Source of the DNA: a virus
Direction: 5' to 3' (one strand)
Virus genome (UHGV): UHGV-0127656
Length of the DNA: 14,641 nucleotides
Numbering within the stretch: the stretch's first letter is position 1; each line of letters opens with the position of its first letter. The notes under the pieces were generated by a model, which worked only from the letters and a program-made list of their open reading frames with translations, made no database searches and was not told the DNA's origin. The position numbers and the translations under genes were made by a program. This document shows, in pieces, positions 2-9,069 of this stretch.

Positions 2-364
2 CTACCATTGTTTAATTCCGTGGGTGACTCAGTTGAAGAAGCGTTGCTTGAGGCTGGTTATGGATTGGTCGCAGCGGTTGCGATTGAGATTGAAGAACGC
101 CGACCTGTTCCCACTGGTAGCGAGCCAAAAGAAGGTGAGTACGTTGTCTCTTTGCCAGTGCTACCAGCAATGAAGGCTGCACTCCACAACGCGATGATAG
201 AAACCGGCACACGCAAAGCAGAGTTGGCGCGCAAACTCGGAAAAAATGGAACACAGATTGATCGGCTTCTCGACGTCGAACATTCATCGAAAGTTGAAAC
301 TGTCGAGCTGGCACTGCATCAACTGAATAAAAATATCGCCGTATCTGTCACACCAATGCGGTGA
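2..364 (+). CDS. hicB: HicB-family antitoxin of a type II toxin-antitoxin pair, 5'-partial (frame open to the left window edge; ORF track starts it at the first Met, 8)
   Basis: C-terminal segment 'TRKAELARKLGKNGTQIDRLLDVEHSSKVETVELALHQL' resembles the DNA-binding tail of E. coli HicB as I recall it, and the preceding 'GDSVEEALLEAGYGL...' resembles the HicB N-domain. No stop between position 2 and the Met at 8, so the N-terminus and any hicA lie upstream of the window. Confidence 0.6.
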   Translation, partial: LPLFNSVGDSVEEALLEAGYGLVAAVAIEIEERRPVPTGSEPKEGEYVVSLPVLPAMKAALHNAMIETGTRKAELARKLGKNGTQIDRLLDVEHSSKVETVELALHQLNKNIAVSVTPMR

Positions 365-476: not shown

Positions 477-1862
477 TCAGGTTTCCAGCCCAAAATCGCT
501 TTGTTCTGTTTTGGCTTCGAACATCGTGAAGTTAAGCCCTTTCCCCTCTCCATGTTCCAGTTCAATCTCATTAGAAACAGCGGTCAAAATACTACGTAGA
601 TCGACATCTCCACCGCCGAACATATCGCCCAACGCCTGCTGTTTATGAATCAGTTCGTCGTTGATTTTTTGTGCCATTTTTTTGAATGCAGCCCCCATGC
701 GCTTCGCGCTTCGATTATTTGCCACGATGAATAGCGCCAACGCCTCGGCTTCCGGCGGGCTATCACCGAAGAGTCCGCGCTGGGCTATCACCTCTTCCAC
801 TGCCTGACCGTTGTCTTTGGCTTCACGAACAAGGTTAATCGCGTCCTGGAGTGCTGCTATAGCCTGTTTATCCAGACCGTTCACCTGCTCTATACCATCA
901 ACCAGACCAGTTACAGCATCATGATGTGCATCGCCAGAAATCGACTGCATTTGCGCAAAGTCACTGGCTGCTGTATTAAGCGCGGTCAGGATATTGCGCA
1001 TTTCCGGATCCGGTTCTTCCGCCACAAGCCGAACAAGTCGCTCATCCTTATAGGCTTTGGCAAAAATCGCATTCTGAATGCGATCGATAAGCTGTTTCGT
1101 TGGACGTCCATCGGCTGTAAGCAAACCTGCCGTCGCGGTATCGCCTATTTCGTGCAAAAACGCACGAATAAACGCATCATTGGACCGCGCCAGTAGATTT
1201 CCATCATCTGAAGGATTAAATAGCGCCATGACGCTCTCAGTGAGAAATTGCGCATCCGCATACGCTTTCTCACTTGCAGCCATCTCTTGCAGATCGCTGA
1301 TGTTTGAGTCGCGTGCAAATTGAGCACGATCAACGTCAGTGAGGCGCTCGCGAACCAGTACAGGCATCACCATTGCCCTGACGTCTTCGGGATTAAGGCC
1401 AAACTCTTTAGCGTGATCGATAAGATATTGTCGGTAATCTTCAGCCTGTCCTTGTTCATAAGCACGCCAGATTCCCATGCTTCGACCATTACCAGACTCA
1501 ACGACATTATCCGGACCAACAATCGGGGAACCATGACTACTCATACCCGAATCAGTGAGCTGTGCCGGGCGTAAATTGGCGGCGATACGGTTAACCTGGA
1601 GCTTACTTGACAGTCGGGTGCGATCGCGAGGCTGGAGTTCCTCCGGAAATGACGGATTTATACTTCCGTCCAGGTTGTTAGAAATGATGAGCTTTTTGGC
1701 ATCAATAACCTTGAACGCTGTTTTAACTTCGTCGCCTTTGCTGGTGACGACATAGCTGCTACGCCCCAACTTCGTCTCTTGCTTTTCAAGAGATGACACC
1801 ACAGCGATAACCCCCTCAATGTTCGCTGCGGCCAGAAGTGCTGATGTTACGTTTTGAGTCAC
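477..1862 (-). CDS. Hypothetical 461 aa protein, separately transcribed; occupies the position expected for ddrB if the upstream operon is Dar-like, but identity is unknown
   Basis: Long ORF with GTG start at 1862 preceded by AGGTGG at about 7 nt spacing. Flanked by hairpins on both sides (1932-1948 upstream, 443-461 downstream). No Walker or other catalytic motif recognised by eye. Confidence 0.55.
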   Translation of the reverse strand: MTQNVTSALLAAANIEGVIAVVSSLEKQETKLGRSSYVVTSKGDEVKTAFKVIDAKKLIISNNLDGSINPSFPEELQPRDRTRLSSKLQVNRIAANLRPAQLTDSGMSSHGSPIVGPDNVVESGNGRSMGIWRAYEQGQAEDYRQYLIDHAKEFGLNPEDVRAMVMPVLVRERLTDVDRAQFARDSNISDLQEMAASEKAYADAQFLTESVMALFNPSDDGNLLARSNDAFIRAFLHEIGDTATAGLLTADGRPTKQLIDRIQNAIFAKAYKDERLVRLVAEEPDPEMRNILTALNTAASDFAQMQSISGDAHHDAVTGLVDGIEQVNGLDKQAIAALQDAINLVREAKDNGQAVEEVIAQRGLFGDSPPEAEALALFIVANNRSAKRMGAAFKKMAQKINDELIHKQQALGDMFGGGDVDLRSILTAVSNEIELEHGEGKGLNFTMFEAKTEQSDFGLET

Positions 1863-1953: not shown

Positions 1954-2325
1954 TTACGCTGCATACCCGTTAGCTGAAACCCAGTTTACGGTCTGTTCTT
2001 TGGCCTGGTCGAGTGTCAAAAATTCACCAATATATTGAGATATGCCTCTCAAAGCATCGATGAACTCCATTTGTGATGATTTAGTAAATGCACCACTAAG
2101 GAAGTCAGCAACAATTTTAGGCGTTTCTTGTGCCGCCGGTTGCACTTCCTCTTCTTGCTGTTGTGCTGGATTATTCGATGAACCAAGCCCCAGCTTCATC
2201 ATCACTTCAACTATCCGCACGCCAATAGTGACACGTTGTACCGCAGTCGCGCTTTTTTGCGCTGACATCAGCTCAGACAGTTCTTTGCCTAAGCTAAGGC
2301 GCTCCGTTACTGATATTTTCACCAC
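1954..2325 (-). CDS. Small 123 aa protein, last gene of the operon; DdrA-like by position and size
   Basis: GTG start (2325 or 2322) overlapping the stop of the upstream 650 aa gene, AAGGGGG Shine-Dalgarno-like element upstream, terminator immediately downstream. Assignment is by synteny only. Confidence 0.45.
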   Translation of the reverse strand: MVKISVTERLSLGKELSELMSAQKSATAVQRVTIGVRIVEVMMKLGLGSSNNPAQQQEEEVQPAAQETPKIVADFLSGAFTKSSQMEFIDALRGISQYIGEFLTLDQAKEQTVNWVSANGYAA

Positions 2326-4271
2326 ACGCCCCCTTGTTGTATCTCTGCCAGAATGTTGATCAGGTGATCGGCTGCCGCACCAACAAGTGACTCGTTCTCA
2401 TCATATCGACCTGCGTTGATAAGAACATTAGCTGCCTCCTGAATGCGATCAAACTCCGCTCTAATCACCGTCAAATCACGGGACGTAAACTGCAACGGCA
2501 CGGATTTCAGATATTCCAGCGCACTGTCCGCCTCCTGATCAGCCTCACTAACTACTGGCCCATCTGAACCTGTATCAGACTCTTGGGGGGATTCAGGTTC
2601 AGACTCAGGTTCTGGTTCTTGTACTGCTTCCGGTGCCTGATCTAATGTCTGTTCAGCTTCGACTACTTCTGATTGATTCTGAAGCGCGTCATAGATATCC
2701 ATTATAAAAAGGTTCTCCCCATCTCCAAGTGGATAAGCGACGTTAGGAAATGCTTTGCGGAAGAGGATTTTTATCTGCGCCTTAAAGGTTTTCAAGTCGC
2801 TTCTAAACAGATCAACATAGCCATCAATATGGTTCGACATACTGGACGCAACCAATTCGCCTGCAATCTCTTTCAATTCATCGTCACCAGGGAGATATAG
2901 CAACTCGTACTGACTGACTTCTTCGTCTGTCAGTTTGCGGTCATACGTAATGATTCCGTGACGAGCATATTCGTAATACGGATCAGCCTGATCAGGACGG
3001 TCAAGTACAGCTTTATTTCCTTCAGGAACCGCACCAACACCCGCCGGGCGAGATTGGAGCGCATAGCGATATTTACCAACCTCCAGGGGATCAGGATGTG
3101 ATGCTGGTTGTGGCTCCTGTTCAGGCTGCGGCTGATCAGTTGGCTCAGGCTGGCCCGGCAACACATCCACTTTGTATTGATCAGCATTATGTTCACGATA
3201 GGCTTTAAGTAATTTGGTTGCAGCGTCCGCTGAACTCCCACCTTTAACAGCACTGACATCAATACTGAAATTGCCTTCTGGTGCCTCAATCGTGACAAAG
3301 CTATCACTGCCTGACGTGACATACTTAACTACAGCACCATTATCCAGCGTTGTTTGGCCTTCTGTAGCAAGATTATGTTTTATGTGTCGCAGTTGATCAT
3401 TGAAGGCACGCTCTTTAGTTCCTTGGCTCTTAGCTGACAATAAATTATCGCGTTTAGCCTGCAATTCCGCGTTAAGGGCTTTTTGTGCGTCTAATTTATT
3501 CTGCATATCATTGAGTGTTGAGCGTTTCTCTGCCAGCCCCCGCTGTGCGTCTTCAACCTGCTCAATCAGCACAGAACGTTCTTCTGCCAGCTTGTCGGCT
3601 TCATTGAGATACCCCTCAATATCAGCCTTCATTTTGTCCTGGCGCTCCTTTGCTTTTTTGAATTTTGCACTGTTACGCTCAATGAGGTTAGAAAGCGCCT
3701 GACACACCTGGCTCAGAGATACATCACGCCCACCGATTGGCGCAACAACATGCGTAACGTTTCTTTTGTTAAGAAGAAACTGAAACGCAACCAGCTCGTC
3801 ATCCCCTTTAATTCTTGTGCCGTCTGCGGTTGGAGAATGGAAAATTATGCTTGTCGTTTGTCCATCGGTTAGAGGTATTTGTGCTGTTACAACAGGGATA
3901 TTAGCAACCCGGCGCACGCGCCCAATGATTGCCCCACCGATACTATTACGTCCGTCTTCATATTCACCTGCCTCATCCGTACCCGCAGCAATGTCAGTGC
4001 CATTCAGGCCGCGATTAAGCGCCCGGACAAATGCTCGCATTGTTTGCGCTAACCGCAATTTTGTTGTGGTTATGGCTTCGAACATTGCCTCATTGGTAGT
4101 TACCAAAATTTCGTTGCCCATATAGGCCAGCTCGATATCTTCCAGCGTCGCAGGCTCGATAAGTAAATCATCCTCGGTGATATCTTCCGCCACCCAACGA
4201 TTAGGCGTATATCCAGTGAGCGTATCTGCAAAAGTGGACTGGATATTTATTCGAATAGGTTTCTTTATCAT
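2319..4271 (-). CDS. darA: 650 aa multi-domain protein: N-domain, coiled coil, beta-rich middle, Pro/Gln-rich and Pro/Glu-rich acidic linkers, C-terminal helical domain; DarA-like (P1 antirestriction / head-associated protein) by architecture
   Basis: ATGA start/stop overlap with the upstream 205 aa gene. Size close to what I recall for P1 DarA. A segment of it appears similar to the upstream 205 aa protein, matching the P1 description of Hdf as 'homolog of DarA fragment'. Not verified by search. Confidence 0.5.
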   Translation of the reverse strand: MIKKPIRINIQSTFADTLTGYTPNRWVAEDITEDDLLIEPATLEDIELAYMGNEILVTTNEAMFEAITTTKLRLAQTMRAFVRALNRGLNGTDIAAGTDEAGEYEDGRNSIGGAIIGRVRRVANIPVVTAQIPLTDGQTTSIIFHSPTADGTRIKGDDELVAFQFLLNKRNVTHVVAPIGGRDVSLSQVCQALSNLIERNSAKFKKAKERQDKMKADIEGYLNEADKLAEERSVLIEQVEDAQRGLAEKRSTLNDMQNKLDAQKALNAELQAKRDNLLSAKSQGTKERAFNDQLRHIKHNLATEGQTTLDNGAVVKYVTSGSDSFVTIEAPEGNFSIDVSAVKGGSSADAATKLLKAYREHNADQYKVDVLPGQPEPTDQPQPEQEPQPASHPDPLEVGKYRYALQSRPAGVGAVPEGNKAVLDRPDQADPYYEYARHGIITYDRKLTDEEVSQYELLYLPGDDELKEIAGELVASSMSNHIDGYVDLFRSDLKTFKAQIKILFRKAFPNVAYPLGDGENLFIMDIYDALQNQSEVVEAEQTLDQAPEAVQEPEPESEPESPQESDTGSDGPVVSEADQEADSALEYLKSVPLQFTSRDLTVIRAEFDRIQEAANVLINAGRYDENESLVGAAADHLINILAEIQQGGVW

Positions 4272-4885
4272 GCATCTTCCTCCAGGCGCGCTATTTCTTC
4301 TTTCAATACGCGAGTTTTCGCCAGTTCCTGCGCCATCTCGGTTCTAATGATTTCAGTTTCTCTTGTTGCGCGGTCTGAATTACCTTGCACCTGATTTAAT
4401 TTTTCTTTGGCCCTTTCAATATCCTCGCGGATCGCATCGCGAGATTCCTTTGCCTCTGCTAGTTTCTGCGCATTGGACTTAACGCCTTTTATTTTCTTAT
4501 TCCCATCATCAATATCTTTCGCCGCACGAGCTAACTTACGCGCCAATGATTTCTGAAATGATGATGCGCCTTTATTAAATAAAGCAGCCAGTGATTGCCC
4601 TAAAGCCATCAGCGTTTTAACTGGCTTGAAAGGAACAATTTTTCCGTTCAGTTTTACACCAGAAATATCACCAGTATCATTAACCTGAACGTCCATCGTC
4701 TGCTCATCGATTCCGATAAGGGTAAACGTGCGCGTCATGATCCCGTCTTTCTTCCTGCCATTACTGGCGGGGATCACCCTCGCTATCTTGTAGCCTCCTT
4801 TACCGATTTCTTTGACGAGTTTTGCCAGCCCCTTTTCGTTTAACTCATCATAATTAAGAAGAACATAATTAGACTTATTTGACAT
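4268..4885 (-). CDS. hdf: About 205 aa protein with N-terminal beta-rich domain and C-terminal coiled coil; Hdf-like. Start is probably the Met at 4885 rather than the ORF-track start at 4909
   Basis: AAGGAG sits 6 nt upstream of the ATG at 4885 (the ORF-track Met at 4909 has no comparable site). Region 'IARVIPASNGRKKDG...ALGQSLAALFNKGASSFQK' resembles DarA-like 'RVANIPVVTAQIPLTDG...SLSQVCQALSNLIERNSAKFKK'. Confidence 0.5.
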   Translation of the reverse strand: MSNKSNYVLLNYDELNEKGLAKLVKEIGKGGYKIARVIPASNGRKKDGIMTRTFTLIGIDEQTMDVQVNDTGDISGVKLNGKIVPFKPVKTLMALGQSLAALFNKGASSFQKSLARKLARAAKDIDDGNKKIKGVKSNAQKLAEAKESRDAIREDIERAKEKLNQVQGNSDRATRETEIIRTEMAQELAKTRVLKEEIARLEEDA

Positions 4886-5321
4886 TCCAGTCTCCTTCAC
4901 ACTTTTCAATCATAAACTGACGTTCTATGCAGTCATTGATAGGGAAAATGCGATAAAGCGGATTCAGGCGGCAATTACCGTTAGTCAATGTGACCTTTAG
5001 ATCCCACTTCGCTGGCTCAAGATATTTCGTGTCGATGAGCAAATATTCTTCTCTCTCACCGCGTTTTGACGCGTCAACTGGTCTGGTTTTCCCCGAAATA
5101 ACCACAGATGGATTTTTCAAGTCCTGCAACCAATATTCGATTTGTGCATTGCTTACCCAGCTTCGTTTAACGCGAAGCGACACAGGAAACGCTATAGCAG
5201 ACTCTTTCACTACAGCTTCGCCAATGCTCAAAATATCAACACTCTTGCGACGAAATAAGAAACGGTCAATAACGGCAACAAATGCCATGATAAAAATGAA
5301 ATAATTTCCAAAGTCACCCAT
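4875..5321 (-). CDS. 148 aa protein with one N-terminal transmembrane segment (YFIFIMAFVAVIDRFLF); LydB-like by position and size (holin antagonist in P1)
   Basis: Start ATG overlaps the stop of the upstream holin-like gene by 1 nt, with AGGTGGAG upstream. Overlaps the next gene at its 3' end. No lysozyme catalytic motif seen. Confidence 0.45.
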   Translation of the reverse strand: MGDFGNYFIFIMAFVAVIDRFLFRRKSVDILSIGEAVVKESAIAFPVSLRVKRSWVSNAQIEYWLQDLKNPSVVISGKTRPVDASKRGEREEYLLIDTKYLEPAKWDLKVTLTNGNCRLNPLYRIFPINDCIERQFMIEKCEGDWNVK

Positions 5322-6561: not shown

Positions 6562-9069
6562 TTAATACCCATAAGCAACATACTGTGCATATACTTTATC
6601 AGTAGAGCTACTTTTTACTGTAAAACCAGTGGCTGAGTTGTTGTATGTATAAAGAATTGCATTAACAGCATTCCCGCTATTAGGTGAAATCACAACTACC
6701 GCACACGCCTCAGGAAAAGCAGTCGGAAATTTAACTACGCTTCCTGGAGTAACAGCCGCTATAATCCCCCACTGCATCATCACCTTAGTTGATGTATCCT
6801 TATGCCATCCATGAATGTTGGCATATGCTGTGTTTTTAGCCTGATATTTCGTGTTGAAATTACTATAGTTACCAGGGGTAATCTGACCAGCGGCAGATAA
6901 ATTCCCCATAACCCTTACATGACCATCAGCACGTCCTAATTCTACGCGACCATCACCGCCATCTATCTTTAATGGAGTGTAAACGACATCACCATTAACA
7001 TTTTGCCCAGTGGTTGATATCTGGAAACTATATCCAGTATTAGTTATTAGGAATCCATAGTTATTATTATAAGTTAGGCGTATAGCATTTTGGCTGCTGG
7101 ATATAATTTCACCGGTAACAGTACCACCTGTTGTTGGTAACGCACCAACATGACTTGCCGTTAATGTGATATCTGCAGAACCATCAAACTTAACACCGTT
7201 GATTGTGCGGGCTGTTTGCAGTTTTGTAGCGGTTGCAGCATTACCTGTTGTGTTCTGGTTACCGGCAATGTTCACACCCGGCAGGTCGATATTGGCGGTG
7301 CCATCAAATGCCACCCCGCCGATCGTTCGGGCCATCTTGAGCTTTGTGGCAGTATCTGCGTTTCCCGTCAAATTACCTGTAATGCCACCACTAACTGTTA
7401 CCCCATTACCGATGGACACCAACCCGGTTCTTAAATTTATAGCAAAAGGTCTTAATGGGCCGATGTCACCATTTTCTCCCTCACCTTCATTTGTCGGGAT
7501 AAGATGAAGATATTCCTCGGATCTCCTGAAGATAAGGCCAAAGTCCTGGTTAAATATTCGAAGGGCATTTATTGTGCCAATTTTTAGCTGCCCCCCCATT
7601 GTGTCGCCAGAACGCTGAACTGCGTTACCAGCTTGAGAAGCAATATCCGTTAAGCCAAGATCTTCAGGGGTCAGAGTAATATCTGCCGACCCATCAAATG
7701 CCACACCGTTAATCTTTCTGGCTGTTTTTAATTTCGTCGCAGTATCGGCGTTCCCGGTCAGCGTACCAGTGATCCCCGCGCTGAAAGTCTGGCGTGCACT
7801 CCAGGTATTAGCTGTGCTCAACAGGGGGAGCTTTTCTCCGCTGGTTCCGAGTTCTCTTAAACCAAGGTATTGGATAACAGCCAGTGTGCTTGTTTTAGCA
7901 AGAATATCGCGACCGACTGACGTTAAATCAGTCTGGGCTACAGTGTCTGTTCCGGTAAAGTACGGTAATTTATTTGCCCCCGTCGCCAGGTCAGCGAGCG
8001 CGGTTAAGGTTGCGTCGAGAGGCTGCTTACCTGCCAGGGCATTTGTCATTGTAGCCGCAAAGTTCGGGTCATTGCCCAGCGCCGCAGCAAGCTCATTAAG
8101 AGTATCAAGAGCTTCTGGTGATGAGCCGACCAATGCAGAAATAGCGGCACGAACATAAGCGGTTGTTGCAATCTGAGTGTTGTTCGTACCTTGTGACGCT
8201 GTAGGCGCTGTTGGCACCCCTGTAAATGCCGGGCTTAATAACGGTGCTTTAAGAGCTAAAGCAGCATTAATCGTCTGGCTAAACTGAGGATCATTGTTAA
8301 TTGCATCTGCAATTTTTTTCAGCGTATCCAACGCTGAAGGAGAACCATCAATAAGGGCGGTTATTGCGGCCTGAACAAAGGCAGTGTTTGCGATTTGTGT
8401 ACTGTTTGTACCTTGTTCCGGAGTTGGAGATTTAGGTATACCAATAAACTCCGGGCTATCAACCGGAGCTTTTAGTTTGTTTAACGTGCTGATAGCAAGA
8501 GGTGTTGCGGCTTTATATTCTTCGTCACTATCCAAAGCACTGGAAAACTCAACACCAACAGCACGATTAGCACGATATTCAGTGCTAATCATATCTGCGG
8601 TAACGGCTTGAGCATTGTCAGGCACGATCACGCGGCATAGCTCAATCTGGTTAGATGCTATTTCCTCATCAACGAGAGCAATAATTCTCGCTGCGCTAAT
8701 ATCCGATGAGCTATCTACCTGGCTGGTTTTCACTCCATGTTCGTAATTAGCTTCAAGAACGATGATTGTCGTTACACCAGCTTCTACAGGAACAAGAACA
8801 TCACTGACTTGCTGCACGGATATCTGACATTTACCCACGTCAATTGAAGCCGCCCCTCTTCCCTCTGTTTTCTCGGATGTAATACGCACAAACAGACCAT
8901 CCCCTGGCACCGGTTCAAACCCACAGTACACTCCGGGCAGAACGATATTTTTCATCTTCCTGTTTAGAGCTTCGGTGCTATACAGCTCAAAGTATTGCAT
9001 GTCTGCAATTAGTGGAGCGGAAATGTCCGAAGATAAGGTGACAATATTCTTTACTTTATCTGCGCACAT
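6562..9069 (-). CDS. Tail fiber protein (835 aa) with a central region resembling the P2 gpH / P1 S / Mu S / lambda Stf family and a distinct C-terminal receptor-binding domain
   Basis: Segments such as 'SPAFTGVPTAPTASQGTNNTQIATTAYV...SSPEALDTLNELAAALGNDPNFAATMTNALAGKQPLDATLTAL...LPYFTGTD...LTSVGRDILAK' closely resemble P2 gpH as I recall it. Also carries repeated 'TGNADTATKLKTAR.INGV.FDGSADITL' units. ATG with GAGGGA upstream. Confidence 0.9.
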   Translation of the reverse strand: MCADKVKNIVTLSSDISAPLIADMQYFELYSTEALNRKMKNIVLPGVYCGFEPVPGDGLFVRITSEKTEGRGAASIDVGKCQISVQQVSDVLVPVEAGVTTIIVLEANYEHGVKTSQVDSSSDISAARIIALVDEEIASNQIELCRVIVPDNAQAVTADMISTEYRANRAVGVEFSSALDSDEEYKAATPLAISTLNKLKAPVDSPEFIGIPKSPTPEQGTNSTQIANTAFVQAAITALIDGSPSALDTLKKIADAINNDPQFSQTINAALALKAPLLSPAFTGVPTAPTASQGTNNTQIATTAYVRAAISALVGSSPEALDTLNELAAALGNDPNFAATMTNALAGKQPLDATLTALADLATGANKLPYFTGTDTVAQTDLTSVGRDILAKTSTLAVIQYLGLRELGTSGEKLPLLSTANTWSARQTFSAGITGTLTGNADTATKLKTARKINGVAFDGSADITLTPEDLGLTDIASQAGNAVQRSGDTMGGQLKIGTINALRIFNQDFGLIFRRSEEYLHLIPTNEGEGENGDIGPLRPFAINLRTGLVSIGNGVTVSGGITGNLTGNADTATKLKMARTIGGVAFDGTANIDLPGVNIAGNQNTTGNAATATKLQTARTINGVKFDGSADITLTASHVGALPTTGGTVTGEIISSSQNAIRLTYNNNYGFLITNTGYSFQISTTGQNVNGDVVYTPLKIDGGDGRVELGRADGHVRVMGNLSAAGQITPGNYSNFNTKYQAKNTAYANIHGWHKDTSTKVMMQWGIIAAVTPGSVVKFPTAFPEACAVVVISPNSGNAVNAILYTYNNSATGFTVKSSSTDKVYAQYVAYGY
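7159..7779 (-). repeat. Three copies of a ~110 bp coding repeat inside the tail fiber gene (7159-7269, 7279-7389, 7669-7779)
   Basis: Encode 'TGN(A/-)DTATKL(K/Q)(T/M)AR.I.GV.FDG.A.I.L' at about aa 431-467, 561-597 and 601-637. Confidence 0.7.
8059..8481 (-). repeat. Two tandem degenerate ~200 bp coding repeats inside the tail fiber gene (8059-8259 and 8281-8481)
   Basis: Encode paired units 'LKAP..SP.F.G.P.(A/S)PT...GTN.TQIA.TA(F/Y)V.AAI.AL...SP.ALDTL...A.A..NDP.F' at about aa 197-263 and 271-337. The DNA-level similarity is visible by eye. Confidence 0.7.

Follow-up and report, generated by a model that had tools for sequence, protein, structure and literature searches.

Phage P1 depends on its DarA protein (YP_006494) for protection against type I R-M systems and for heads of normal size, and the structure of this protein has been obtained by cryo-EM (PDB 9ukm and 9vz0, chain I; Zheng et al. 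2026, PMC12810830). In these structures residues 70-382 were modelled under the capsid shell at penton-hexon junctions, where they pair with Hdf and touch DNA. Density is lost from residue 383, the chain being mobile beyond 382, and residues 1-69 are also absent from the density, a ∼9 kDa N-terminal fragment being cleaved off in maturation (PMC12810830). The protein attaches to the inside of the capsid and governs head size; loading of every other Dar protein needs both DarA and Hdf, and all Dar proteins exit the head with the DNA (PMC12810830). The DarA-N domain has also been listed among the domains of phage-type polyvalent proteins (Iyer, Burroughs, Anand, de Souza, Aravind 2017, PMC5512222). 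Here we describe a DarA protein encoded by the UHGV virus genome UHGV-0127656, with emphasis on the part of the chain that follows the last residue modelled in P1.

Results

The window, by which we mean the whole stretch of 14,641 nucleotides that was analysed, carries darA at 2319..4271 on the (-) strand (the range includes the stop codon), encoding a 650-aa antirestriction internal head protein. The NCBIfam equivalog NF052326 matched this protein with 1083.7 bits (cutoff 350), aligning residues 2-649 with positions 1-654 of the 654-position profile, and PHROG 1926 matched it with 1079 bits. Pfam placed DarA_N (PF18788) at aa 62-201 (E 7.7e-40), followed by DarA_C (PF18789) at aa 399-461 (E 4.3e-19). 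P1 DarA is 40% identical over aa 36-649 (BLASTP, E 1e-144), and its structure, PDB 9ukm_I, was matched both by sequence (phmmer, E 3e-124) and by fold (Foldseek, E 2e-16). The homologue from Escherichia phage D6 (MF356679 / NC_050154), an element of the same family of circular plasmid prophages, is 78% identical over the full length (tblastn); it is annotated as 'released from the phage upon host infection' and lies beside an 'Hdf-like antirestriction' gene. A megablast search of the phage collection with the darA DNA returned no match, and relatives were reached by tblastn. No enzymatic effector or processing peptidase domain was recognised in the 650-aa protein by Pfam, PHROGs or NCBIfam.

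Six genes, lydA-lydB-hdf-darA-ddrA-ddrB, have the same order and strand as in P1, and a non-mobilizable E. coli plasmid with tail and head genes (a phage-plasmid) matches the whole window at 98.5% identity. As judged by homology, the 650-aa ORF is a full-length DarA orthologue in a P1-type operon of a D6-like E. coli phage-plasmid. The protein is already known: its family is named and curated, and this exact protein is already called DarA in public databases. By analogy with the P1 homologue, at 40% identity, it would be packaged in the head, processed at its N-terminus and active against restriction.

The neighbouring hdf gene (4268..4909, (-)) encodes a DarA_N-domain partner of DarA (PHROG 1620 'Hdf-like antirestriction', E 3e-72; Pfam DarA_N, E 7e-18). 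Its start is likely the ATG at 4885, giving a protein of 205 aa, as annotated in the 98.5%-identical plasmid. On the other side, ddrA (1954..2325, (-)) encodes a DdrA-like protein (PHROG 1855, E 1.4e-44), and its likely start at 2322 overlaps the darA stop. A composition scan showed that DdrA has a Gln/Glu/Pro linker of its own at aa 48-70. The ddrB gene (477..1862, (-)) is a short form encoding 461 aa with a ddrB-ParB domain (Pfam PF18763, E 2.7e-40). The protein is 64% identical to residues 2-442 of P1 DdrB; it has no counterpart to the last ∼550 aa of P1 DdrB and lacks the predicted metallopeptidase half. We considered that this half might lie further downstream in the near-identical plasmid and rejected the idea, the 391-aa ORF found there being unrelated. 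Two ORFs overlapping darA, at 2673-2900 (+) and 2930-3322 (-, other frame), have no family support and were treated as spurious.

The N-terminal half of DarA begins with an acidic and poorly conserved tail (aa 1-69; 4065..4271, (-)), with pLDDT <50 at residues 1-40 and 54-67 and a mean majority-residue fraction of 0.45. This tail is the counterpart of the P1 segment thought to be cut off by the prohead protease, and by analogy it would be cleaved from the orthologue as well. The DarA_N alpha/beta domain (aa 62-201; 3669..4088, (-)), which is the hexon-binding domain in P1, is the best-conserved block (majority fraction 0.81). It is followed by one long alpha-helix of 80 residues (aa 202-281; 3429..3668, (-); AlphaFold2 pLDDT about 90), the P1 equivalent of which pairs with an Hdf helix under the capsid shell. 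Next is a small alpha/beta domain (aa 294-366; 3174..3392, (-)), the penton-binding domain in P1, for which AlphaFold2 predicts helices at 294-304 and 347-366 and strands within 306-338 (pLDDT 67-78) and which can be aligned with the P1 residues modelled up to 382.

The C-terminal half starts with linker 1 (aa 371-396; 3084..3161, (-)), which is Pro/Gln/Glu-rich, and continues with the DarA_C module (aa 397-541; 2649..3083, (-)), in which a small beta/alpha subdomain (397-460) is packed on a three-helix bundle (463-541). Linker 2 (aa 542-575; 2547..2648, (-)), which is Glu/Pro/Ser-rich and strongly acidic, leads into a C-terminal three-helix bundle (aa 576-650; 2322..2546, (-)) with predicted helices at 576-594, 600-619 and 624-648 (pLDDT 80-88). 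Both linkers are predicted to be disordered, as judged from composition shuffles, pLDDT and their lengths in homologues. The C-terminal bundle opens with a conserved SEAD-x2-A-[ND]-x-A-[LI] motif in which D578 is invariant, and its length is constant in all homologues (63-65 aa, and 64 in nearly all). An HMM of this bundle, run against DarA_C-bearing proteins, matched only DarA-type proteins. The pI of aa 70-370 is 7.75; aa 371-650 holds 20 K+R versus 55 D+E, and the two C-terminal modules are acidic (pI 4.2-4.5). An earlier, sequence-only reading of this DNA (the first-pass annotation) had counted at least three globular regions. Autonomous modules are indeed delimited by the linkers, but the count was too low, the N-terminal half alone comprising the tail, DarA_N, the 80-residue helix and the small alpha/beta domain.

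In the translated protein, LPGQPEPTDQPQPEQEPQPASHPDP spans aa 371-395 (window 3087-3161) and APEAVQEPEPESEPESPQESDTGSDGPVVSEADQEAD spans aa 546-582 (window 2526-2636). Linker 1 contains 17 P+E+Q in 25 aa, a number that was reached by none of 20000 shuffles of the protein's composition, and linker 2 contains 24 P/E/Q/D/S in 30 aa, reached by a single one of 20000 shuffles. There is no basic residue in either LPGQPEPTDQPQPEQEPQPASHPDP or APEAVQEPEPESEPESPQESDTGSDGPVVSEADQEAD, and their net charges are -5 and -13, respectively. Linker disorder was read from low pLDDT, which is a prediction, in an AlphaFold2 model built from a 42-sequence alignment. Values <50 were found at aa 373-396 and 542-573, within the C-terminal half only at the linkers, and the blocks beside them were modelled confidently (pLDDT 85-91 for 397-541 and 80-88 for 576-648). 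The whole-chain pTM was only 0.29 and no fixed inter-domain arrangement is therefore predicted. Thus the two low-complexity linkers that had been proposed within 2532-3161 (exactly aa 371-580) are borne out by both the shuffles and the pLDDT values. The second linker of the first-pass annotation, placed at about aa 545-580, needs trimming: the string is present, off by one or two residues, but its end, 'SEADQEAD', already belongs to the first helix of the C-terminal bundle (576-594), whose conserved start it forms, and so is not linker, the real linker 2 covering about aa 542-575.

These segments have the features of disordered interdomain linkers: they are of low complexity, poor in hydrophobics and predicted to have little order, and between the conserved domains they vary in length and sequence. 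The Pro/Glu-rich stretches are predicted flexible tethers between folded DarA blocks. Tandem Repeats Finder detected no DNA repeats in darA, so that in this copy the variable linker length cannot be put down to simple repeat slippage.

We compared 37 non-redundant DarA homologues. The globular blocks are constant in length among them; plain linker 1 segments range from 10 to 41 aa and plain linker 2 segments from 4 to 33 aa. The median proline fraction is 0.36 in linker 1 and 0.21 in linker 2, with a median basic fraction of 0. Most plain segments have a net negative charge (27 of 29 for linker 1, 23 of 25 for linker 2). In the closest (D6-type) relatives the linkers are 41-60% identical, versus 70-91% for the domains, and the differences between D6 DarA and the present protein are concentrated in the two linkers. 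Across the family the linkers retain composition, not sequence or length. The shortest examples are a linker 2 of about 4 aa (e.g. homologue P0046) and a linker 1 of about 10 aa (P0016), indicating that a long tether is not strictly required. In another homologue (P0015) linker 1 is replaced by a non-Pro/Glu sequence containing a degenerate duplicate of the first DarA_C strand. A compensated frameshift of a Pro/Glu linker was ruled out as its origin by the DNA, which is a different sequence.

Extra modules of 75-250 aa sit in linker 1 (8/37 DarAs) or linker 2 (12/37), and the module-bearing proteins include Pantoea-, Rosenbergiella- and Tatumella-type DarAs. The Pro/Glu-rich stretch comes after the inserted module in most of the examples shown. 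No family matched the inserted modules. The Pantoea-type linker 2 inserts were considered as DdrA-like on account of a shared W..ANG / W..ALGY motif, and this was rejected, seven inserts having no match to PHROG 1855 and no other significant match in PHROGs or Pfam. The linkers separate three units of independent evolutionary distribution, namely the capsid-anchoring N-terminal half, DarA_C and the DarA-specific three-helix bundle.

The domain between the linkers, for which the first-pass annotation could offer no name, does have one, DarA_C, a functionally uncharacterised module. The model of DarA_C is very confident, and it has no counterpart among solved structures. DarA_C is found alone and within polyvalent proteins that contain no other DarA parts. 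In proteins of 961-3431 aa its neighbours include LPD1/3/23/29/38, ART-PolyVal, PBECR1/3 nucleases, InPase, MuF_C, RadC, MutS_I and a methyltransferase. The stand-alone proteins ('defense against restriction DarA-related protein', e.g. Thauera, Rhodoferax) have the whole ∼130-aa module in common with DarA (query positions 5-135) and carry its conserved Y..RP..G..P...ARHG....R.L...E....EL signature, of which R-P / P / R-H-G / R / E / E is invariant between DarA_C and the stand-alone proteins of conjugative elements. Unlike DarA, they are single-domain proteins without linkers that are encoded outside phage head operons, their genes adjoining PcfJ, UDG, RNase_T, HU, TraT and ParM-like genes in mobile-element gene strings. 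They are only moderately acidic (median pI 5.3), which speaks neither for nor against a DNA-mimic role. A literature search on DarA_C / PF18789 returned nothing relevant, only daratumumab papers.

P1 DarA has the same domain order over its full length, the same place in the operon between hdf and ddrA, and Pro/Glu linkers in both of the corresponding positions. Those of P1 are shorter and less acidic (26 aa for linker 2, versus 46 aa here, measured as alignment windows). The N-terminal 35 residues are unrelated, and the element is D6-like, not P1-like. By alignment, P1 residue 382/383 falls within linker 1. Since only about 9 kDa is lost from the N-terminus of P1 DarA, the linkers should be intact in the virion. 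The P1 virion proteome covers 67.4% of the 69.4-kDa DarA; residues 70-382 make up 49% of the protein, and hence virions must contain some of the rest as well. P1 heads also show an unassigned low-resolution density close to the penton-binding domain; should it stem from the C-terminal half of DarA, that half would be less than fully mobile.

Discussion

We consider it probable that the region studied belongs to DarA, an internal head protein with an anti-restriction role in a D6/P1-like phage-plasmid, of which it forms the flexible C-terminal part, and that its linkers serve as tethers. The linkers would be extended, polyproline-II-like and DNA-repelling, reaching about 7-10 nm each at roughly 3 Å per residue, and would keep the two acidic C-terminal modules off the capsid wall and free for a docking or effector role toward the other Dar cargo. 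A beads-on-a-string build could also allow the 71-kDa protein to thread the ∼40 Å tail channel domain by domain, and the linkers may double as evolutionary junctions at which new modules are spliced in.

Other roles for the linkers have to be weighed against that of tethers. One unlikely alternative is that the anti-restriction agent is the acidic C-terminal half itself, linkers included: after injection it would fill the DNA-binding groove of type I restriction enzymes as a flexible polyanionic DNA mimic, much as Ocr or ArdA do. Strong acidity is typical of the known DNA-mimic anti-restriction proteins and is found in aa 371-650 as well (55 acidic versus 20 basic residues, with a net charge of -13 in linker 2), and negative charge without basic residues is the sole conserved property of the linkers. 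However, linker length varies, the charge ranges from about 0 to -11, and linker 2 is almost missing from some homologues. Ocr and similar DNA mimics need a folded scaffold that holds their charges in a fixed pattern, and a hypervariable disordered segment provides none. Moreover, the loss of protection in darA mutants has another explanation in the absence of all other Dar proteins from the head. We regard as quite unlikely the possibility that the linkers are maturation cleavage sites, at which the prohead protease or another peptidase would cut, DarA_C and the C-terminal bundle then being injected separately. Linkers that are exposed and disordered make good protease substrates, and polyvalent proteins have been proposed to be processed into units, DarA itself being known to be proteolytically processed (Iyer et al. 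2017, PMC5512222); yet P1 DarA loses only the ∼9 kDa N-terminal fragment (PMC12810830), and the P1 proteome coverage implies that the C-terminal parts stay. In addition, DarA here has no peptidase domain, the local DdrB is without its predicted metallopeptidase half, and the hypervariable linker sequences contain no conserved cleavage motif.

It is also highly improbable that the linkers have no function of their own and are neutral junctions left by domain accretion or recombination, for which any hydrophilic spacer would suffice. Such junctions would account for the unconstrained sequence and length, for the clustering of module insertions at the two linkers, and for the exchange of linker 1 in P0015 for a sequence of another kind. 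They do not account for a Pro-rich acidic composition, with a median basic fraction of 0, that is kept across lineages down to about 37-40% identity, or for the similar linker in DdrA of the same operon. This conserved composition and its recurrence in DdrA point to selection for an extended, DNA-repelling spacer. In any case, the neutral-junction explanation overlaps with that of tethers more than it excludes it.

A further, more tentative reading is that DarA is a capsid-anchored display scaffold, held under the shell by its N-terminal half, with the Pro/Glu linkers as plug-in sites for co-injected effector modules. DarA_C would then be an uncharacterised anti-defence effector or adaptor itself, not a passive structural piece, and the inserted modules of 75-250 aa would be further new injected effectors. 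The case for DarA_C comes from its very confident model, the lack of a solved counterpart and the invariant signature that it has in common with proteins of conjugative elements.

The annotation of this gene as darA is ordinary; its value is that it marks the limit of current knowledge. The P1 cryo-EM is blind beyond residue 382, that is, to everything after linker 1 (PMC12810830). Our comparative data indicate that this invisible half is made up of two autonomous modules, both folded, that are held by acidic Pro-rich tethers, that DarA_C is a mobile module common to polyvalent proteins and small conjugative-element proteins, and that the tethers are the sites where related phages added new modules. 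These data define concrete constructs for asking how the rest of the Dar proteins are recruited by DarA and Hdf, and whether DarA_C by itself acts against host defences.

Comparison with other known systems

The TonB polyproline region and the EP repeats of trypanosome procyclin have the same composition as the linkers, and this is a resemblance only. Exactly at the linkers there are weak Pfam matches to Trypan_PARP and TonB_N (19.6 bits versus a gathering threshold of 100), and homology was rejected with scores so far under the gathering thresholds. The internal proteins of phage T4 (IPI-III, Alt) are, like DarA, packaged in the head and injected with the DNA against host defences. In T4, as probably in DarA, an N-terminal segment is removed by the prohead protease; unlike DarA, the T4 proteins have no anchor on the capsid shell and no part in setting head size, and they have no sequence or fold relationship to DarA.

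The polyvalent proteins of phages and conjugative elements contain the DarA_N and DarA_C modules too, are likewise multidomain proteins built like beads on a string, and arrive together with the invading DNA. The first-pass annotation had called such a layout typical of this class of virion-packaged proteins, injected to counter host defences, as opposed to ordinary structural proteins of the head or tail. That reading holds in so far as the protein is DarA and both of its Pfam domains belong to the polyvalent repertoire. On the other hand, polyvalent proteins combine several effector or enzymatic domains, commonly with a processing metallopeptidase, whereas the present protein is only 650 aa long, no enzymatic effector or processing metallopeptidase was detected in it, and its N-terminal half would be structural in the capsid, a role taken from P1. 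Judged by its domain content, DarA is thus no classical polyvalent protein; P1 DarA is a structural protein of the head, which goes part of the way toward what the first-pass annotation had named as its refutation, yet it is not an 'ordinary' one.

Identification of the window protein as DarA

By homology, the 650-aa product of the minus-strand ORF at window 2319-4271 is shown to be DarA. It matched the NCBIfam equivalog NF052326 ('antirestriction phage head protein DarA') over its full length with 1084 bits (cutoff 350) and PHROG 1926 ('released from the phage upon host infection') with 1079 bits, and Pfam placed DarA_N at aa 62-201 (E 8e-40) and DarA_C at aa 399-461 (E 4e-19). The phage D6 homologue is 78% identical to it and P1 DarA, the sole solved relative found by sequence and fold searches (9ukm and 9vz0), 40% identical across aa 36-649. 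NCBI and UniRef label its 90%-identity cluster DarA or 'head protein', and the gene is already known and properly named in public databases. The neighbours lydA, lydB, hdf, ddrA and the gene for a ddrB-ParB protein have the order and strand of the P1 dar operon, and tail-fibre, baseplate and tape-measure-like genes lie beyond the dar genes. Over its entire length the window shares 98.5% identity with a non-mobilizable E. coli plasmid (locus L002), a D6/P1-like phage-plasmid.

We noted an extra single C (GCGCG-CC to GCGCGCCC) in this plasmid, pMUB-MIN14-1 (NZ_CP069647, L002:7270-7300, corresponding to window ~4275-4290), 18 nt ahead of the hdf stop codon. It fuses hdf in frame to darA, annotated as a single 855-aa 'head protein', and could stem from an error in sequencing or represent a natural fusion of Hdf with DarA; the two proteins pair 1:1 in the P1 capsid.

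Composition and predicted structure of the linkers

Both low-complexity strings quoted in the first-pass annotation are present on the minus strand: linker 1, LPGQPEPTDQPQPEQEPQPASHPDP, at aa 371-395 (window 3087-3161), and linker 2, APEAVQ...DQEAD, at aa 546-582 (window 2526-2636). The interval first proposed, window 2532-3161, corresponds to aa 371-580; both linkers are real, and only the end of linker 2 needed a small correction. The 25 residues of linker 1 include 9 Pro, 5 Gln and 3 Glu, and the 37 of linker 2 include 9 Glu, 6 Pro, 5 Ser and 4 Asp; neither has a basic residue, and their net charges are -5 and -13 respectively. This strong bias was matched by shuffled DarA in 0/20000 (linker 1) and 1/20000 (linker 2) cases. 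We found no DNA tandem repeats in the darA gene, and two further ORFs overlapping the linker region had no family support. A composition scan revealed a similar stretch in the product of the next operon gene, DdrA, where a Gln/Glu/Pro-rich low-complexity linker (GSSNNPAQQQEEEVQPAAQETPK, aa 48-70, window 2116-2184, minus strand) joins two short helical halves; acidic linkers thus recur among packaged Dar proteins.

In an AlphaFold2 model built on a 42-sequence alignment, a low-confidence N-terminal tail is followed by the DarA_N alpha/beta domain, a single 80-residue helix (aa 202-281, pLDDT about 90) and a small alpha/beta domain (aa 294-366). The pLDDT is below 50 in linkers 1 (aa 373-396) and 2 (aa 542-573), which flank a confident middle block (aa 397-541, pLDDT 85-91), and the chain ends in a three-helix bundle (aa 576-648, pLDDT 80-88). 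Since the whole-chain pTM was 0.29, a fixed domain arrangement is not predicted. Modelled in isolation, the middle block reached a pLDDT of 93.8 and a pTM of 0.84, and comprises a small beta/alpha subdomain and three long helices.

Conservation of the linkers and inserted modules

Block lengths were measured on an alignment of 110 DarA homologues, each 600 aa or longer. Globular blocks are nearly constant in size: the core spans 298-317 aa (421 in homologue P0096), the middle domain 132-154 aa (194 in P0087) and the C-terminal bundle 63-65 aa (64 in nearly all); the N-terminal tail spans 58-64 aa. Among 37 DarAs non-redundant at 90% identity, plain linkers (those without an inserted module) measure 10-41 aa for linker 1 and 4-33 aa for linker 2, with median proline fractions of 0.36 and 0.21, acidic fractions of 0.22 and 0.24 and basic fractions of 0 in both; 27/29 and 23/25, respectively, are net negative. 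Identity to the closest relatives is 41-60% in the linkers vs 70-91% in the domains. Composition has thus been kept while sequence and length have not, a pattern typical of disordered spacers under selection for physical properties. Both DarA segments are shown to be disordered-type spacers separating autonomous modules.

In one D6-type DarA (P0015, L008:1300-1420), the Pro/Glu linker 1 is swapped for QDLNRYQNNSQATQNVSKYRHALYQSSLED, which holds a degenerate second copy of DarA_C's first strand (VSKYRHALYQS vs VGKYRYALQS); examination of the DNA ruled out a frameshift origin.

An extra module lies within linker 1 in 8/37 non-redundant DarAs (roughly 95-240 aa) and within linker 2 in 12/37 (roughly 75-220 aa), followed by a Pro/Glu-rich stretch in most examples inspected. 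The inserts had 0 family matches in Pfam and PHROG, and a guess that some of them are DdrA-like was not borne out by this search. These folded-looking inserts were seen in DarAs from Pantoea-, Rosenbergiella- and Tatumella-type elements (linker 1: P0028, P0040, P0041, P0062, P0037, P0083, P0086-P0089; linker 2: P0042-type, P0047, P0048, P0056, P0060, P0037, P0045, P0069). What modest interest remains attaches to the C-terminal modules, as yet uncharacterised, and to the use of the linkers as places where modules are inserted.

DarA_C as a mobile module

Querying 1.84 billion representative proteins with DarA aa 396-545 returned 231 relatives in three groups: DarAs, many stand-alone proteins 130-160 aa long, and a set with lengths of 1000-3900 aa. 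Members of this last group contain LPD1/3/23/29/38, ART-PolyVal, PBECR1/3 nuclease, InPase, MuF_C, RadC, MutS_I or methyltransferase domains and correspond to the polyvalent proteins described by Iyer et al. 2017 (PMC5512222). The stand-alone proteins align to query positions 5-135, so the mobile unit is the entire ~130-145 aa module and not merely the 70 aa of Pfam DarA_C. Residues conserved superfamily-wide are Y403, R408, P409, P416, R437, H438, G439, R445, L447, E451 and E456 (window DarA numbering). Among the 231 relatives, by contrast, an HMM built on the three-helix bundle at the C-terminus matched DarA-type proteins only. The three regions of DarA are independent modules.

Two stand-alone DarA_C genes form part of extended runs of small genes, all on one strand, that sit on mobile elements, with PcfJ, UDG, RNase_T, HU, TraT or ParM-like neighbours; the carriers are apparently conjugative or plasmid elements. 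Stand-alone proteins of 138-145 aa were located at L003-L006:8001-8417 and L007:8001-8438, among unannotated small genes, and two come from Thauera and Rhodoferax.

The first-pass annotation had proposed a polyvalent-type protein, packaged in the virion and injected against host defences, whose middle domain had no nameable motif. The class and the polyvalent link hold, but the protein belongs to a known, named family with a head structural role and is devoid of effector and peptidase domains. Its middle domain does have a Pfam name, DarA_C, and may, as suspected, carry an undescribed activity.

Proposed role of the linkers and comparison with P1

The predicted domain layout fits the P1 cryo-EM study (PMC12810830), in which the DarA model covers residues 70-382, divided into hexon-binding, alpha-helix and penton-binding domains that sit against the inner face of the capsid, pair with Hdf and contact DNA. 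Residues 1-69 are not in that model, in agreement with the ~9 kDa cut off by the prohead protease (PMC12810830). In the alignment, P1 residue 382 falls inside linker 1, which therefore marks the end of the ordered, capsid-bound half. Proteome coverage of DarA in the P1 virion is 67.4%, for which residues 70-382, only 49% of the protein, cannot alone account; as the N-terminus alone is trimmed, the linkers persist in the virion. By analogy with P1, the N-terminal half of window DarA would be fixed under the capsid with Hdf, and the protein would be trimmed at its N-terminus alone, with its linkers intact in the virion.

That the linkers are cleavage sites is disfavoured: these P1 processing data speak against it, the linkers contain no conserved motif and DarA has no peptidase domain. 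A disordered DNA mimic fits poorly with linker length and charge that vary, and junction sequence without function fits poorly with composition that is conserved; both are likewise disfavoured. As disordered spacers, the linkers may instead be Pro-rich acidic tethers that hold the acidic C-terminal modules (pI 4.2-4.5 vs 7.75 for aa 70-370) off the capsid wall and DNA. Modules so placed could dock other Dar proteins or act post-injection, and a string of small domains would ease transit through the tail. In P1, DdrA, DdrB, DarB and Ulx need DarA and Hdf for loading, and the Dar proteins all exit with the DNA via a ~40 A channel (PMC12810830).

Elsewhere in the window, an 835-aa tail-fibre protein (window 6562-9069, minus strand) contains a ~30-aa repeat (TGNADTATKLKTARKINGVAFDGSADITL and variants) three times and SP[SE]ALDTL..[IL]A.A[IL].NDP.F twice. 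Unlike in P1, the interval from the fibre genes to lydA has no cin invertase and no invertible segment. The ddrB homologue (window 477-1862, minus strand) encodes a short form of 461 aa, corresponding to P1 DdrB residues 2-442 (64% identity), whereas P1 DdrB has an additional ~550-aa C-terminal part with a predicted autoprocessing metallopeptidase; in the related plasmid, the ORF that follows downstream of ddrB bears no relation to this part. Directly past the truncated ddrB lies a HicA/HicB toxin-antitoxin pair (window 8-364, plus strand, extending upstream beyond the window; L002:2720-3364), the window start falling inside the HicB-like gene; at this position P1 instead carries the rest of ddrB and hxr.
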